From the IMG/VR virus record IMGVR_UViG_3300044691_000591, positions 20,850-84,849 of that record: 64,000 nucleotides of DNA, one strand, 5' to 3'. Shown here in pieces: positions 6,497-53,126 of this stretch. Both the position numbers and the translations under genes were made by a program. The notes beneath the pieces were generated by a model that worked only from the letters and a program-made list of their open reading frames with translations, ran no database searches and was not told where the DNA came from. Position 1 is the stretch's first letter, and every line of letters starts with the position of its first letter. This DNA comes from a virus.

Positions 6497-7359
6497 GGGC
6501 ACTCGTAACTGGCCACAGGGGCTTCGTTGGCCGCCACCTCACCACCGCGCTGATCGAGCGGGGGTGGATCGTCCGGGGCATCGACCTGCTGGACGGCGAG
6601 GACGCCCTCGACTTCTTCCGCACCGACAGCACGTACTTCGATCTGGCCGTGCACTGCGCCGCCACCATCGGCGGCCGTGCAGCCATCGACGGCAGCCCCC
6701 TGGCGCTCGGCACCAACCTGGCCCTCGACAGCTGGTACATGCACTGGCTGGCCAAGACCGGCACACCGCGCGCCGTCTACTTCTCCAGCTCGGCCGCCTA
6801 CCCGGTCGACCTCCAGCAGCCCGGCGAGATCACCAAGCTGCACGAGTCCGACATCGACCCCACCGCGCCGGAGCAGCCCGACGCCACCTACGGGCTGGCC
6901 AAGGTGGTCGGCGAGAAGCTGGCCGGGTACGCCGCCGAGCTCGGGTGTCAGATCGCCATTCCCAGGCCGTTCAGCGGCTACGGAGAGGACCAGGCACTCG
7001 ACTACCCGTTCCCCAGCTTCATCGCGCGCGCCCGCCGCCGCGACGACCCGTTCGAGATCTGGGGCGACGGCAGCTCCACCCGCGACTGGGTACACGTGAG
7101 CGACATCGTCGGCGCCACCCTGGCGGCCGTCGACCAGGGCATCACGGGACCGTTCAACATCGGCTGGGGCCGGGCCACATCGTTCGACGACCTCGCGCGA
7201 ATCGTCACCAAGCGCGCCGGGTACAGCCCGCTGCTCAAGCACCTCGGTGGCCAGCCGACCGGCGTGCACCACCGGGTGTCGGACCCGGGCCGGATGCTCG
7301 GCTTCTACCAGCCCGCTGTGACATTGGAAGAGGGCGTTCGACGCGCCCTCGCCGCCTAA
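6493..7359 (+). CDS. NAD-dependent epimerase/dehydratase (extended SDR)
   Basis: ALVTGHRGFVG, FSSSAAY, YGLAK (YxxxK), IWGDGSSTRDWVHVSD. Confidence 0.92.
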   Translation: MRALVTGHRGFVGRHLTTALIERGWIVRGIDLLDGEDALDFFRTDSTYFDLAVHCAATIGGRAAIDGSPLALGTNLALDSWYMHWLAKTGTPRAVYFSSSAAYPVDLQQPGEITKLHESDIDPTAPEQPDATYGLAKVVGEKLAGYAAELGCQIAIPRPFSGYGEDQALDYPFPSFIARARRRDDPFEIWGDGSSTRDWVHVSDIVGATLAAVDQGITGPFNIGWGRATSFDDLARIVTKRAGYSPLLKHLGGQPTGVHHRVSDPGRMLGFYQPAVTLEEGVRRALAA

Positions 7360-7375
7360 CCCGAAAGGACACCCC

Positions 7376-7660
7376 ATGCCCGAGCAGCAGCCCAGCGTCG
7401 GCCGCATCGTCCACTACGTCAGCTACGGTTCGCCCGTGCGCCCGGATGGGACGCAGGCATTCACCTCGCAATGCCGCGCGGCAACGGTCACGGAGGTCGG
7501 CGACGGGGGCACCGTGGGCCTGATGGTGGCCAACCCGACCGGCCTGTTCTTCCACTCGCTCGCCGACGGCGGATCGCCCTACGACGAGTGGGACAGCACC
7601 ACCGCGCTGGCGGGCGCACAGCCGCAGGGCGGCTCCTGGCACTGGCCCGAGCGAGTCTGA
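7376..7660 (+). CDS. phage hypothetical protein
   Basis: RBS GAAAGGA; PSVGRIVHYV...SWHWPER motif recurrent in actinophages. Confidence 0.75.
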   Translation: MPEQQPSVGRIVHYVSYGSPVRPDGTQAFTSQCRAATVTEVGDGGTVGLMVANPTGLFFHSLADGGSPYDEWDSTTALAGAQPQGGSWHWPERV

Positions 7661-7662
7661 CC

Positions 7663-7929
7663 ATGACCGAACTGCCCAAGTGGGCCTGGGACCTCGTTAT
7701 CGCCGTCCAGAAGCACGAGGACGAACACCCGAAGGGCGGCGCTTGCTTCGAAGCCGTGCTCGCACCCATCCCCGCAGAGATCCGCGACCAGGCCGCAGCC
7801 ATCCACTCCTACACGACCGGCACGAGCACGGCCGCCTGGGGGCGCGTGCACGCGCAGACGGCTGAGTTCCTGGCGTCAGTCGAAGGCCTTGAGTTCGGTC
7901 CGACCATCCCCGGCCGGTCCGGTGGCTGA
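7663..7929 (+). CDS. hypothetical protein
   Basis: ATG 2 nt after the upstream stop; typical codon usage. Confidence 0.6.
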   Translation: MTELPKWAWDLVIAVQKHEDEHPKGGACFEAVLAPIPAEIRDQAAAIHSYTTGTSTAAWGRVHAQTAEFLASVEGLEFGPTIPGRSGG

Positions 7930-8521
7930 CAGCGTGGCGGCGATCATCGCCGCACACCCGCCCCGCATCCGCAGCGGCCAACTGGCCCGCGCCGTTGCCT
8001 CCGTATGGGCGCAGACCCAGCCCGTGACCGAGCTGCACGTCGCCATCGACCACGAGCGCGAAGGCGCGCCCGCGACTCGCCAGCGCGCACTCATGGCCGC
8101 CACCACCGACTGGGTGGCGTTCCTCGACAGCGACGACTGGTGGTACCCCCAGCACGTCATGACGCTGCTCGCCGCCGCTCAGAAGACCGGCGCGGACTAC
8201 CTCTACTCCTACTTCCAGGTCCACGACGACCACGGCACCGAGCAGCCCAGCTGGGACCCCCTCGGCCACTTCGGCAAGCCGTTCAACCCCGCCGACCCGC
8301 ACCAGACCACCATCACCACCCTGGTGCGCCGCGATCTCGCCCAAGCAGTCGGCTTCGCCCAGCCCGGCGAAGGCGGCACCATCGGCGGCCAGCGCGCAGG
8401 TGAGGACTGGGAATTCACCCTCGGCTGCCTCGACAAAGGCGCCCACATCGCCCACGTGCCGCAGCGCACCTGGGCCTGGTGCCACCACGACACCAACACC
8501 TCCGGGCTCCCGAGCTGGTGA
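7922..8521 (+). CDS. glycosyltransferase family 2
   Basis: WVAFLDSDDWW (DxDD) and GEDWEFTL motifs. Confidence 0.85.
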   Translation: MADSVAAIIAAHPPRIRSGQLARAVASVWAQTQPVTELHVAIDHEREGAPATRQRALMAATTDWVAFLDSDDWWYPQHVMTLLAAAQKTGADYLYSYFQVHDDHGTEQPSWDPLGHFGKPFNPADPHQTTITTLVRRDLAQAVGFAQPGEGGTIGGQRAGEDWEFTLGCLDKGAHIAHVPQRTWAWCHHDTNTSGLPSW

Positions 8522-10849: not shown

Positions 10850-11842
10850 CTAGGCTGTTTCGTAGATCCCGTGGACGGCGATGACGTCGCCGGACGCGGC
10901 CTTGAGGGGTGAACCCGACACGGTCCAGCCCATGCTCGCCGCCCCGCCGGTCTGGAACCACACCCCTGCTCGCGTCGCGATCCCCGCCGACGGCTGGGAC
11001 ACGCCCGCGTACACCGTGCCGCCGCGCGTCATGGAGACGCCGAACACGTCCAGGTGGGACGTCTGCGCGGCGAAGGGCAGCGTCACGCCCATGGCGAAGG
11101 TGGGCCACGTCGAAATGTTCCCGACCTTGATCTGGGCGGTGAACTCGCAGGACTTGCCGCGCAGCTTGTAGCGGCCCACATTGACCGCCCCCGAGCCCCA
11201 GTTGACGGTGGTGCCCGTCGCGTCCCACACCGGGGTGTAGGCCGACCACGCCGGGTCGCCCGCGGTGCCGACATAGTTCCAGGTGGTGCCGTCGCCCATG
11301 TAGATGTCATTGCCCTCGACCAGCAGCAGGCCCTTGCGCGAGGGGCGGCGCTGACCGGCGATGCCGGACACGACAGGCTTGCCCGTGAGCCAGCGCTGGT
11401 CGGTGACATTGGGGCCGGTCACCACCGAGGACCCGGCGGCCACCGTGCACTGGGCCAGGGGGATCTCCCAGATCCCGGCCGGGTCCTGGGTGAGCGCTGG
11501 CGCGCCGGTCCCGCCCGTCTTGTAGACGGGATGGATGGAGTCCGCGGTCGGATCCAGGCGCAGCACCACGCGGTCCACGCGGGCACTGCTGCCGGTGGCG
11601 TTCGGGGTGACGTTGACCGCCAGGTTCCCGCCGGCCAGGGAGTAGTAGAAGCCGTTGACGAAGCCTTCGCCCGGGGCGACGTTGACGGTGCTGGCGCCCG
11701 AGCCGGTGACCTTCAGGTCGGTGCCGGCCACGTCGTCGGCGAGGATGCCGTCCAGGCCCCAGGCGCGGGCCAGCCGCGACCACTGGTACTCGGTGGCCAC
11801 GGCGCTGCTGGTGAACGGTGCGGAGAACTCGGTGACCGCCAT
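10850..11842 (-). CDS. minor tail protein
   Basis: RVDRVVLRLDP...PALTQ...WEIPLAQ baseplate motif; position in the tail operon. Confidence 0.8.
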   Translation of the reverse strand: MAVTEFSAPFTSSAVATEYQWSRLARAWGLDGILADDVAGTDLKVTGSGASTVNVAPGEGFVNGFYYSLAGGNLAVNVTPNATGSSARVDRVVLRLDPTADSIHPVYKTGGTGAPALTQDPAGIWEIPLAQCTVAAGSSVVTGPNVTDQRWLTGKPVVSGIAGQRRPSRKGLLLVEGNDIYMGDGTTWNYVGTAGDPAWSAYTPVWDATGTTVNWGSGAVNVGRYKLRGKSCEFTAQIKVGNISTWPTFAMGVTLPFAAQTSHLDVFGVSMTRGGTVYAGVSQPSAGIATRAGVWFQTGGAASMGWTVSGSPLKAASGDVIAVHGIYETA

Positions 11843-11846
11843 GTTG

Positions 11847-13025
11847 TCAGGCCGCCTTTCGGGTCTTGAGGCGGGTGAGGTCCGCCTTGATCTGGCCGAT
11901 GTACCGATACACCCGGGCGATGACGTCGGCCGGCGGGTTGGAGGTGTTGCCGATGGTCGCCTTCAGCTGGGTGCCCTCGGTGGCGGAGGCGGTGAGGGTG
12001 AGTTCACGCACGACGTCGGTGATCCAGGTGTCGCGGACCTTCACGGCCACGGTGTCGCCCAGGCCGTAATCGCGGCCGTAGGCCAGCTGCGGAATGTCGA
12101 CAGGCGTGATGGCCAGTGAGCCCTGGCCGGCGCCGGCGGCCAGGGCCTCGGTGCCGGCCTGCAGCATCTGCGCGGCCAGGTCCACCGCGGTGGTGTCCAC
12201 GGAGGTGGCGTCGACCATCTGCTCGATGACCAGGCTGGGGAACAGCGGGTCGATCTGGGCGTAGGAGGCGCAGACCCGGGCCGTGGACTGGCCACCGGCC
12301 ACGACCAGGGCGCGGGTGACGGTGGGCGGGGTGGTGGTGTAGGAGGCTGCGGTGAGGTTGCCGAGGTCGAAGCTGAAGCGGGCGGTGGTGGACTTGTCGG
12401 TGGGTGAGTAGACCTGGAACTGGAGGCCGGTGCCGATCTGGACGACGCGGAAGCCCAGTCCGGCGGCGGTGGCGATGGCCTGGAGGTTCGTCAGGAGGTT
12501 GTCGAACTGGTTGACCTGGCGGGTCACGCTCGCGCCCAGGCCCGTGTCGGCGGCCATGGTGAGGCCTGTGATGCGGCGCACCGACTGCCCGGAGGGGCCG
12601 ATGTTGAGGTTGACGAGCCGGATCATGGCGGTGCCCGCGGCCACTCCGGCGATCTTGTAGACGGGGTCGGTCTGGGCGGTGATGACGGCGGTGGGGTCGG
12701 GCCAGCAGGTGGCCTCCGCCAGGATCGTGTCGTCGGAGGGTCCGGCGACGGTGAGCTTCCCGGCGCCGCCGTCGGTGGCGGTCCGGGACCAGTCGACGGT
12801 GCGGATCGGCCCGGACACCACGGTGGTGGCGCCGCGGGACACGATCAGGCCGTTGCCCTCGACCATGAGGGCGGCCTGCGGCGAGGCGGCGTTAATCTCC
12901 AGGGTGAACGCGCCCACCGCGTTGAAGCGGGGCACGGCGCTGATGGTGACGTAGTCGTCCACCGCGCCGATGGTGTGCAGTGCGGCGTTGCGGACCCGCA
13001 CCTGGAGCGGGGGCCGGGTGCCCAT
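11847..13025 (-). CDS. minor tail protein (siphovirus Gp37-like hub/Tal)
   Basis: PRFNAVGAFTL...YGRDYGLGDTV; directly after Dit. Confidence 0.8.
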   Translation of the reverse strand: MGTRPPLQVRVRNAALHTIGAVDDYVTISAVPRFNAVGAFTLEINAASPQAALMVEGNGLIVSRGATTVVSGPIRTVDWSRTATDGGAGKLTVAGPSDDTILAEATCWPDPTAVITAQTDPVYKIAGVAAGTAMIRLVNLNIGPSGQSVRRITGLTMAADTGLGASVTRQVNQFDNLLTNLQAIATAAGLGFRVVQIGTGLQFQVYSPTDKSTTARFSFDLGNLTAASYTTTPPTVTRALVVAGGQSTARVCASYAQIDPLFPSLVIEQMVDATSVDTTAVDLAAQMLQAGTEALAAGAGQGSLAITPVDIPQLAYGRDYGLGDTVAVKVRDTWITDVVRELTLTASATEGTQLKATIGNTSNPPADVIARVYRYIGQIKADLTRLKTRKAA

Positions 13026-49947: not shown

Positions 49948-50175
49948 ATGGGCTGGTCCGACACCCCCAACGACATCTTCGACCCCGTCGCTCGCGCACT
50001 CATCGAAGCCCGCGCCACCGACGGGCTGAAGCGCAACGTCCTCGGAGTCCTCATCCAACGGCTCCGGTACGAGGACTGGGACACCGCAGACGACTCGCTG
50101 AAGGTCTTCGCCCACGACCCTGGGGTCGTTGCCGCGTTCGCCGACAACGGCATCCGGCGGGGCACCGATGAGTAG
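49948..50175 (+). CDS. hypothetical protein
   Basis: First gene after an AT-rich promoter-like stretch. Confidence 0.65.
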   Translation: MGWSDTPNDIFDPVARALIEARATDGLKRNVLGVLIQRLRYEDWDTADDSLKVFAHDPGVVAAFADNGIRRGTDE

Positions 50176-51042: not shown

Positions 51043-51275
51043 CCTTCGCCGACTTCGTCCAGCCCGGCAATTACAACCGCTCCGACGGCAACACGGTCTG
51101 CGGCCACAACATCGTGGTCGGGCCCGGTGCGTGCGTGGAGTGCCACGCGCTGACTGGCGAGCACCAGGAGAGCGGCTGCACCTGCGACCTCGACGCCTAC
51201 GACGCCCAGCAGGCGGAGAGCTGGGCTGAGGCGTCCATGGAGCGCGCCAGGGCTGCACGGGGGACTGCCCGGTGA
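51039..51275 (+). CDS. Cys/His-containing hypothetical protein
   Basis: GTGA-coupled. Confidence 0.55.
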   Translation: MTFADFVQPGNYNRSDGNTVCGHNIVVGPGACVECHALTGEHQESGCTCDLDAYDAQQAESWAEASMERARAARGTAR

Positions 51276-51454
51276 GCGCCATCGACGACTTCGACGCGCC
51301 CGGCTTCCAGGCGTTGTGCGCCCGATTCGGGATCGAGGCCACGCCCGTCACCGACGCGTTCGGGCGGATCGACTTCCGGCTGGACCGGAAGAACATGGAG
51401 AAGATCGCGGCGCTGAAGCGGCTCGCCGACGGACAACGCACCAAGGAGAACTGA
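51272..51454 (+). CDS. hypothetical protein
   Basis: GTGA-coupled, 60 aa. Confidence 0.55.
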   Translation: MSAIDDFDAPGFQALCARFGIEATPVTDAFGRIDFRLDRKNMEKIAALKRLADGQRTKEN

Positions 51455-51615
51455 TGGACACCGCCGACCTTGAGTCGTGGATTCCGGCACTGGCCGGCTT
51501 GAGCCTGGGCGAGGTGGGCGAACTGGACGAGGCCGCGCTCGGTCCGGCCGTCGCCAGCATGCTCGCCCGGGTCGACCGGCCACTGGCGACCGTCGCCGGA
51601 TCGAGCGGGAGCTGA
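51454..51615 (+). CDS. FxsA-leader-like peptide (53 aa) lacking the FxS core
   Basis: RBS AAGGAG, TGATG overlap; MDTADLESWIPALAGLSLGEVGELDEAALGPAVASMLARVDRPLATVAGSSGS. Confidence 0.55.
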   Translation: MDTADLESWIPALAGLSLGEVGELDEAALGPAVASMLARVDRPLATVAGSSGS

Positions 51616-51617
51616 CG

Positions 51618-52226
51618 ATGACCCCGACGACCCGCTACCTGTGCCCGCTGAACTGCGGCTGGCACCACGACGAAGACCCCGCCGACGTGCCACCGCAGGT
51701 CACCGTCGACGCCGACACGCTCGCGTCCGGCGACCTCGGAGCCGTCATCAGCGCGGTCGCCTTCGCGCACGCCAAGGCCGCGCTGGAGCATGTGGAGAGC
51801 ACCGTGAAGGCGCACCTGGAGACGCACCCGCTGATCGAGTGGGCGCAGAAGGTCGCATCGCTGCAGCGGGATCTCGCCGGGGCCGAGGCCGACGTGCAGC
51901 TCGCGATGGACGAGTGGGGCAAGTCCGATAAGCACCACGCCGAGAAGAGCGTCGCCGCAGCGGCCGAGCGGGGTGCCTGGGGTACGACCCGGATGCGGGT
52001 CTGGAACGCTGCCTTCATCGCCGACGCGGAAGACGTCACGGACTGGCAGCGCGGCTACCGGGCCTGCTCCGAGCGGGTCGTGGCGGCGCTGGACGAGCCG
52101 GTCGACATGGTGATCTACGACTTCAACACGCGGCCGTTGCCTACCCCCGCAACGCCGTCCCGGACAACGCCGGACAATCCCGTGACCAGCAGCGATGCGG
52201 CGGACAAAGGCGGTGAGCAGCCGTGA
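51618..52226 (+). CDS. hypothetical protein
   Basis: YLCPLNCGWHHD N-terminus. Confidence 0.65.
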   Translation: MTPTTRYLCPLNCGWHHDEDPADVPPQVTVDADTLASGDLGAVISAVAFAHAKAALEHVESTVKAHLETHPLIEWAQKVASLQRDLAGAEADVQLAMDEWGKSDKHHAEKSVAAAAERGAWGTTRMRVWNAAFIADAEDVTDWQRGYRACSERVVAALDEPVDMVIYDFNTRPLPTPATPSRTTPDNPVTSSDAADKGGEQP

Positions 52227-52624
52227 GCGTGTGGGGCACGATCTGGTCGGCGGATGACGACGAGCACACCAACCAGTGCAGCCGGTGGCCGCCGCCGATC
52301 AAGACCGGCCCGCACACCTGGAGCTCCACCCTCGACGACTCCCGGCCGTGCGACTGCGGCCAGCCCGGTGCGCCGATCATCTACCAGCCCTCGCATATCC
52401 TGCCCGCGCCGACCGACCAGCGCGGCGGCCACGTATCCCTCGCTGAGGTGCCCGGCCACGTCACCCGCGACGGGCGCGACGACGGCCCCGACGACGCGTG
52501 GGGTGTGTGGCCATGGCTACGCCTGTCCGTGGGCCAGGAGGACGCCGTGCTCGACGAGGCCCTCGTGCGCAGCCTGCGGGACGCCCTCGACGGCTGGCTG
52601 ACGGCGCGCGGCGGCCAGCCGTGA
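52223..52624 (+). CDS. hypothetical protein
   Basis: GTGA-coupled. Confidence 0.6.
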   Translation: MSVWGTIWSADDDEHTNQCSRWPPPIKTGPHTWSSTLDDSRPCDCGQPGAPIIYQPSHILPAPTDQRGGHVSLAEVPGHVTRDGRDDGPDDAWGVWPWLRLSVGQEDAVLDEALVRSLRDALDGWLTARGGQP

Positions 52625-52956
52625 CTGGGGCCGTGCGCGCCCTGCTGACGCCGTTCTACTGGCTGGCCGTCGCCCTGCTGTGGCTGATAGCCATGCCGTG
52701 GCCGCTGGCGCTGCTGGCAGCCCACCTGCCGTGGTGGGGAATGTACCCGGCCTGTGCCGCACTGGGCGTGGGCTACGGCGCCGCCGCCGTGTATGCCAGG
52801 GGCCCGCTGCTGAACCCGCCCGCCCGCTACCTGGCCGGGCTGATCGAGGACCTGGCTGCGGAGTGGCACAAGGCCACCGCGGCCCCAACACTTCCGCCAC
52901 CCGGCGGGGAGATCGACGGGCAGACCCGCCCGGCAACTGAGAGGCTTCACCCATGA
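52621..52956 (+). CDS. membrane protein
   Basis: Two to three hydrophobic segments; coupled on both sides. Confidence 0.6.
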   Translation: MTGAVRALLTPFYWLAVALLWLIAMPWPLALLAAHLPWWGMYPACAALGVGYGAAAVYARGPLLNPPARYLAGLIEDLAAEWHKATAAPTLPPPGGEIDGQTRPATERLHP

Positions 52957-53126
52957 ACGAGACCCAGACCGCGAGCGGCACGAACTTCCCGACCGGCCGG
53001 CGCAAGCGCATGTCGCTGGACCAGGCGTGCAAGGCGGTGGAGGCCAGCTCTTCGCCGGTCGTGAGCCGGATCCTGCCGAGTGGGACCGACCAGGTGGAGG
53101 TCGCTGCCTTCAACTCGTCGATCTAG
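52953..53126 (+). CDS. fxsA: FxSxx-COOH RiPP precursor-like peptide (57 aa)
   Basis: Own translation: MNETQTASGTNFPTGRRKRMSLDQACKAVEASSSPVVSRILPSGTDQVEVAAFNSSI*; ATGA overlap with the upstream gene; GAGAGG RBS. Confidence 0.8.
   Translation: MNETQTASGTNFPTGRRKRMSLDQACKAVEASSSPVVSRILPSGTDQVEVAAFNSSI

Follow-up and report, generated by a model that had tools for sequence, protein, structure and literature searches.

A gene for a small peptide in an early operon of a soil actinomycete phage raises a question about what counts as a complete peptide. The product, 53 amino acids long, begins like FxsA and ends in Gly-Ser-Ser-Gly-Ser, and one may ask whether this is a leader whose functional core has been lost, or an intact member of a peptide class for which such an ending is the rule. 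FxSxx-type peptides are substrates of radical-SAM enzymes, and most work on Fxs-type peptides has treated them as precursors of natural products. The original prediction favoured an FxsA-type leader with a replaced core, hence a decoy that cannot be modified, and named as a second option a precursor of a related class without the aromatic residue. It is this second option that the data support, and the best reading of the comparisons described here is that the phage peptide is an orphan member of a radical-SAM-independent sister class of FxsA.

The window, by which is meant the whole stretch of 64,000 nucleotides that was analysed, comprises bases 20850-84849 of an 84.8-kb virus record in IMG/VR, which is 94% complete according to CheckV, has 70% G+C and comes from soil metagenomes.

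The peptide gene and its operon

In coordinates and sequence the gene reads as originally claimed, with its AAGGAG ribosome-binding site and TGATG coupling, and the peptide ending in FNSSI, said to lie 1.3 kb away in the same operon, is encoded 1338 nt downstream (Table 1). The peptide ATG shares its A with the stop codon of the upstream ORF (TGA 51452-51454), and the ATG at 51618 that starts the next gene follows directly after the peptide stop. In the peptide frame the GC content per codon position is 0.74/0.57/0.85, which is the coding pattern for this phage genome, and before 51618 the pattern is not seen in the other two frames, including the long one from GTG 51477.

Table 1. Features of the peptide region, with positions counted in the window.
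Feature	Position	Strand	Remark
Upstream 60-codon ORF	51272..51454	+	Coupled (TGATG); no family match; not conserved beside the peptide gene in L038
RBS AAGGAG	51443..51448	+	5 nt 5' of the peptide ATG, read directly
53-aa peptide ORF	51454-51615	+	Translation identical to the product quoted in the original prediction
Leader, residues 1-45	51454..51588	+	Conserved S-W-[IL]-P-x-L, G-L-S-L-x-E-[VL] and R-V-D-R-P
C-terminal core T-V-A-G-S-S-G-S, then TGA	51589..51615	+	From the 37-member alignment
202-aa ORFan	51618..52226	+	2 nt past the peptide stop; absent from L038
133-aa ORFan	52223..52624	+	Directly follows the peptide gene in L038
Second orphan peptide, VAAFNSSI-COOH (FxSxx type)	52953..53126	+	NF040585 SjiA family, E 5e-5; TIGR04268, E 0.026

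That there is no gene here at all, only a chance ORF in DNA of such high G+C content, would be in line with the many spurious ORFs that such DNA contains and with the longer frame from GTG 51477 that overlaps the peptide ORF. Against this, coding-type GC3 is limited to the peptide frame, the ribosome-binding site and the coupling are in place, and homologues with identity down to 34% carry an invariant tail; the chance ORF retains next to no probability and is for practical purposes already refuted by the homologues. Codon-position GC likewise led to the rejection of an artefact caused by overlap with the GTG-51477 frame. The ORF is a real, conserved gene, as shown by its ribosome-binding site, its TGATG coupling, its coding-type GC3 and its conserved homologues taken together.

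To the left of the peptide region lie a DnaB-like helicase, a polynucleotide kinase and phrog_19090, and to the right phrog_1810 and phrog_289. Since a scan from 46.5 to 54.5 kb found no terminator-like site anywhere, and since its stretch from 46.5 to 53.3 kb is free of promoter-like sites, the peptide gene is assigned to a long coupled early operon on the replication side of the genome. The neighbouring ORFans have no match in Pfam, PHROGs, NCBIfam or the ESM Atlas; the product of 202 aa is helical with a Cys/His-rich N-terminus. An ORF of 75 aa in the same operon (49948-50175) has G-V-V-A-A-F-A-D-N-G in its interior, some 15 residues short of the end; the sequence recalls the FxsA core, and the ORF has no match to NCBIfam or to the family profile described below.

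No homologue of FxsB, HExxH, FxsT or VMAP proteins is found in the whole 84.8-kb record, which has one single match to the family profile, and a motif scan of the whole phage in all frames finds two Fxs-like tails, GSSGS and FNSSI. Profile and motif searches of the complete record thus agree in showing the phage peptide as an orphan, without partner genes.

A peptide family with a G-S-x-G-S carboxy terminus

In a word-indexed search, homologues were found with 96%, 86% and 58% identity to the phage peptide, each ending in A-G-S-N-G-S, and a profile search extended the family to 15 members, among which W9 and P11 are invariant. When the family profile was run exhaustively with HMMER against 1.84 billion protein cluster representatives, 52 matches were obtained at E<=1e-3, and 31 of these 52 end in [VI]-A-G-S-x-G-S-COOH. 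An alignment of 37 members from metagenomes and genomes (A4) has a mean column identity of 30%. Throughout it (37/37) P11, G49, S50, G52 and S53 are invariant, A48 is conserved to at least 90%, and G-S-x-G-S is the extreme C-terminus of every aligned member. The position x is occupied by Ser in 14 cases, by Asn and Gln in 7 each, by Asp in 4, by Gly and Glu in 2 each and by Ala in 1, and the GSSGS of the phage is the commonest variant of the native motif. Members are 48-70 aa long, and several carry a precomputed match to PF27839.

The phage peptide itself has P11, the terminal A-G-S-x-G-S and the S-W-[LI]-P leader start of the family, and its score of 89.6 bits against the A2 profile is to be read with the fact that the same sequence is a row of that alignment. 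As far as the aligned members can tell, the GSSGS tail is the native C-terminus of a whole family and no one-off replacement of a core. A metagenomic protein of 155 aa (P0056) has three tandem segments similar to M-K-P-W-I-P-A-F-A-G-M-T-V-G-E-V, which match the start of the family leader, and it lacks the G-S-x-G-S tail; it is probably an unrelated repeat.

The kinship of the leader with that of FxsA is seen faintly from the single phage sequence and clearly from the family. On its own, the phage sequence matches the FxsA profile TIGR04268 weakly (E 0.027; 14.7 bits, below the cut-off of 28 bits), and the match spans peptide residues 12-44, corresponding to profile positions 2-33 of 44, that is, the leader only. 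Among the 37 family members, 8 match TIGR04268 at E<=0.1, the best at 3e-5, and 4 match the YxD-tail cyclophane family. In the opposite direction, the family profile retrieves from the 1.84 billion proteins peptides ending in FxSxx-, WxSxx- and GGYNS-COOH, at E values from 4e-6 to 1e-3. Consider, finally, a comparison of two alignments by hhalign, where the family alignment A4 is set against an alignment (A8) of 10 FxsA peptides, gathered independently by TIGR04268 from Streptomycetaceae genomes. The two align with a probability of 95.7% and E 1.1e-8 over 41 columns, which correspond to phage residues 5-45, and the family core and the FxsA core do not align in this comparison. The leader of the GSxGS family is, by profile comparison, homologous to the leaders of FxsA/FxSxx-COOH peptides, and the leader pattern given in the original prediction is borne out, as is its remark that the aromatic residue for crosslinking is absent, the tail being A-G-S-S-G-S-COOH.

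FxsA itself, as defined by TIGR04268, is present in 64 of 151 sampled Streptomycetaceae genomes. Genomes of this family also contain many more classes of tail on the same leader (L007, L008, G341:C40:72501-72650; L012-L019, L027, L030, L032), and examples are A-G-Y-N-Q-S-R-S-D, V-S-F-N-P-S-R-F-D, G-G-Y-N-S-COOH, S-G-Y-N-G-A-G-G... and V-A-G-S-N-S. Three genomes (G001, G002 and G341) have a second peptide locus, and in each of them a further HExxH gene is found at a distance of about 1 kb and a further FxsT gene at 2 kb.

The cellular module in Streptomycetaceae

Peptide-processing systems tied to VMAP ternary conflict systems were described by Kaur, Burroughs, Iyer and Aravind (2020, eLife; PMC7159879). 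Beside a 'zincin-like' HExxH protein and an AP-ATPase-TPR protein they list a small peptide, which is of the FxSxx, RxD, acidic or FtsH-associated type, and they predict that it acts as a toxin or signal to which the AP-ATPase-TPR protein is coupled; for the RxD and acidic types the AP-ATPase is described as fused to a vWA-like N-terminal region (PMC7159879). The 'zincin-like peptidase' is now known as an aKG-dependent hydroxylase (PMC12636437), and aKG-HExxH enzymes are reported to act on peptides with a leader, in which they hydroxylate Asp, His, Gln and Pro (PMC12636437, PMC13060819). In the literature searched there is no characterised enzyme for a G-S-x-G-S-COOH tail.

A GSxGS member was found in five Streptomycetaceae genomes, among them two Streptomyces strains, which means 4 of 400 drawn genomes of this family, or 5 of 401 when the centre G002 is counted; a sample of 400 other Actinomycetes has no family member at E<=1e-6. 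The counts of genomic context given here cover these five loci; some 30 further members are metagenomic. At all five, a stand-alone aKG-HExxH gene (TIGR04267, 128-162 bits with a cut-off of 40) lies within 1.5 kb of the peptide gene, so that the association of relatives with HExxH genes, anticipated in the original prediction, is confirmed, and in each of the five enzymes, encoded for instance at L003:8057-9931 and L040:8402-10318, the motif HEFRH is intact. All five loci also have an FxsT-type NB-ARC/TPR gene (NF040586, 885-907 bits), never more than 5 kb away from the peptide gene, and in at least four of them (L003, L040, L041, L042) the FxsT-type gene is flanked by a VMAP-C/VMAP-M0/EAD2 protein. 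The radical-SAM enzyme FxsB (TIGR04269) is absent at all five loci, and it is absent genome-wide in two genomes (G001 and G002).

Since FxsB is missing at every locus and from two of the genomes altogether, the module of VMAP/EAD2 protein, FxsT-like protein, HExxH enzyme and peptide is shown, at the level of gene content, to be a radical-SAM-independent branch. Judged by the same content, it is that arm of the predicted VMAP conflict systems which processes the peptide, and the R-V-D-R-P of the family may be what Kaur et al. called the RxD type.

Some further features of these loci are recorded here. The FxsT-like proteins (L040:10333-14232, L003:4019-7996 and orthologues, A6) have a SAV_2336-type N-terminal region of about 470 aa with a conserved LLxTDG. 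Such a motif is typical of vWA domains. Pfam reports no vWA domain in this region; the LLxTDG region would agree with an AP-ATPase fused to vWA, as in the RxD and acidic peptide types of Kaur et al. In one genome (G341) a protein of 374 aa is encoded directly beside the peptide gene (L042:10920-12044, minus strand), with a C-terminal EAD2 domain and an unassigned N-terminal part of 290 aa, and it is a candidate for the effector of the module. In the two Streptomyces strains an EmrB-type MFS exporter and a WYL/HTH regulator also flank the peptide gene (L002:8088-9800 and 7023-8087; L003:10219-11742 and 11805-12785), and these two are not conserved at the other three cellular loci.

With the family and its cellular neighbours at hand, the replaced core can be judged. 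A leader decoy, that is, an FxsA-type leader that has lost its crosslinkable core and acts only by competitively inhibiting FxsB or HExxH maturases, draws on the homology between this leader and FxsA leaders, on the lack of an aromatic residue in the tail and on the absence of a maturase from the phage. The tail, however, is not degenerate: it is invariant in a family whose cellular members have an intact HExxH enzyme and no radical-SAM enzyme. A pure decoy would not need a conserved G-S-x-G-S-COOH, yet the copies in the phage lineage keep it, and this conservation argues against a leader without function in its tail. The claim of a non-modifiable decoy is the part of the original prediction that has to be given up, at least in its reasoning from a replaced core, and the decoy as such is now quite improbable.

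The phage copy and its possible role

How the phage carries the gene can be studied by comparing the window with a 2.5-kb soil contig (L038), in which the identity to the window runs from the ribosome-binding site and ATG of the peptide gene to the stop codon. Over these 171 nt the two sequences are 97% identical; they differ by a codon indel, a synonymous change and a change from Ser to Asn at the variable position x, and where the window has AAGGAG the contig has AGGAGA. Outside this segment, the upstream gene is a different one, the contig lacks the 202-aa gene (window 51618-52226 compared with L038:405-515) and has other sequence in place of the FNSSI region, and a homologue of the 133-aa gene comes directly after the peptide gene. 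Such sharp borders at a single gene show, on sequence comparison, that the peptide gene is a gene-sized cassette of phage-style mosaicism.

The recurrence in phages amounts to one lineage, represented by the window, L038 and P0002. Profile scans of viral contigs (A1, P0011, A5; IMG/VR) found no other phage with the family, blastn of the region and tblastn of both peptides had no match among INPHARED phages, and tblastn of the GSSGS peptide had none among PLSDB plasmids. Two matches were discarded as due to chance: one from the viral scan (L001, HMM E 0.19) and one in a Burkholderiaceae MAG (L004).

The rarity of carriage by phages is a feature that one would expect of a passenger, or of cargo for lysogenic conversion, captured from a host module and either neutral or serving the lysogen as an extra precursor of a signal or toxin, with no role in conflict. 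Capture from a host would also fit the closest cellular member (G110/L009, 83.5 bits), which agrees with the phage peptide over most of the leader's second half and the tail. Typical morons differ from this gene, which sits within a coupled early operon and has no promoter or terminator of its own. Furthermore, a second phage-type contig, whose flanks have diverged, has the cassette intact and nearly identical, with changes at tolerated positions only, and the same operon has a second orphan peptide of another type; with all this, a mere passenger is unlikely.

The comparison with L038 bears also on a self-contained function within the phage, where the peptide would be a small regulator with phage partners, for instance the 133-aa or the 202-aa ORFan, and its likeness to host peptides would be merely ancestral. 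The 133-aa gene does stay beside the peptide gene in L038, and the neighbours are ORFans without an assigned function. But L038 does without the 202-aa neighbour, nothing among the phage proteins is similar to HExxH, FxsT or VMAP proteins, and the leader and tail residues are conserved as in the cellular family, which points to the same cellular partners. We regard a function confined to the phage as very unlikely.

What is left as the preferred reading, and what we hold to be somewhat better than an even chance, is that the orphan GSxGS peptide relies on, or interferes with, a putative HExxH/FxsT machinery of the host. The peptide would be made early in infection. A putative host HExxH enzyme would recognise it through the conserved leader (the phage copy keeps every invariant residue of leader and tail), and, by analogy with other aKG-HExxH substrates, the enzyme would probably hydroxylate it at or beside position x. 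Such a look-alike of the host peptide could then occupy or mis-signal the HExxH enzyme, the TPR sensor of the FxsT-type STAND protein, or both, with the outcome that the host system is steered or blunted. Since leader and core are both kept in the phage copies, we infer that the peptide is a faithful copy of a host peptide and not a decoy without a core.

Carboxylate-clamp TPRs read C-terminal peptides. That the motif stands strictly at the C-terminus in all classes of tail suggests, by analogy, that a free carboxylate is read here too. With both peptide types in its operon, the phage may address two types of host system, one dependent on FxsB and one with HExxH only. That the phage pursues a deliberate strategy against a host peptide system, as the original prediction had it, is plausible from the two orphan peptide types, the lack of any enzyme for them and their position in an early operon. 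A more far-reaching generalisation would be that actinophages counter the VMAP/FxsT systems of their hosts with ligands that are faithful copies of these systems' own C-terminal-motif peptides, the FxsT TPR reading the free motif, G-S-x-G-S-COOH or F-x-S-x-x-COOH, after modification by HExxH or FxsB. The present phage would have one peptide for each of two types of system, and early in infection the sensor would be held in a 'self/quiet' state or the maturase swamped. This generalisation we regard as possible but doubtful.

The wider interest of the locus lies in where such peptides are found. In comparative genomics, Fxs-type peptides belong to modules of filamentous actinomycetes that are predicted to serve immunity or suicide, and two types of the Fxs superfamily, without enzymes, in one early operon of a phage are circumstantial evidence that such peptides act as signals or ligands in the conflict between phage and host. 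Peptide, host module and phage together offer a simple experimental handle. The sister class defined here is independent of radical SAM: its peptides terminate in G-S-x-G-S-COOH, with the small residues Gly and Ser on either side of a variable x, and its enzyme is a stand-alone aKG-HExxH protein. The new points are the GSxGS type, its HExxH-only cellular module, and its occurrence together with an FxSxx orphan in one phage operon.

Among known systems, the FxsA/FxSxx-COOH peptides (TIGR04268, with FxsB TIGR04269 and SjiA NF040585) come nearest. Both groups consist of small actinobacterial peptides with homologous leaders, both terminate, after [VI]-A-[AG], in a short conserved motif, and the cellular members of both adjoin HExxH and FxsT-type proteins. 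They differ in the tail, which in the GSxGS family is one residue shorter and has no aromatic residue, so that the crosslink site of F-x-S-x-x-COOH is absent, in the score of the phage peptide, which stays under the TIGR04268 cut-off (14.7 against 28 bits), in FxsB, which neither the five cellular loci nor the phage possess, and in frequency, as the GSxGS family occurs in about 1% of the sampled Streptomycetaceae genomes and FxsA in 64 of 151. With the systems of the aKG-HExxH hydroxylases (ChlBH; PflC/PosC; BpmH; the nitrilobacillin enzyme) the phage differs by having no such enzyme itself, whereas the cellular GSxGS peptides have beside them a TIGR04267 protein with an intact H-E-x-x-H. The VMAP systems that Kaur et al. 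describe, finally, are cellular ones and the phage copy is an orphan, but the cellular GSxGS loci match these systems in their VMAP/EAD2 and NB-ARC-TPR proteins, in the HExxH protein, and in a small peptide with a conserved C-terminal part.
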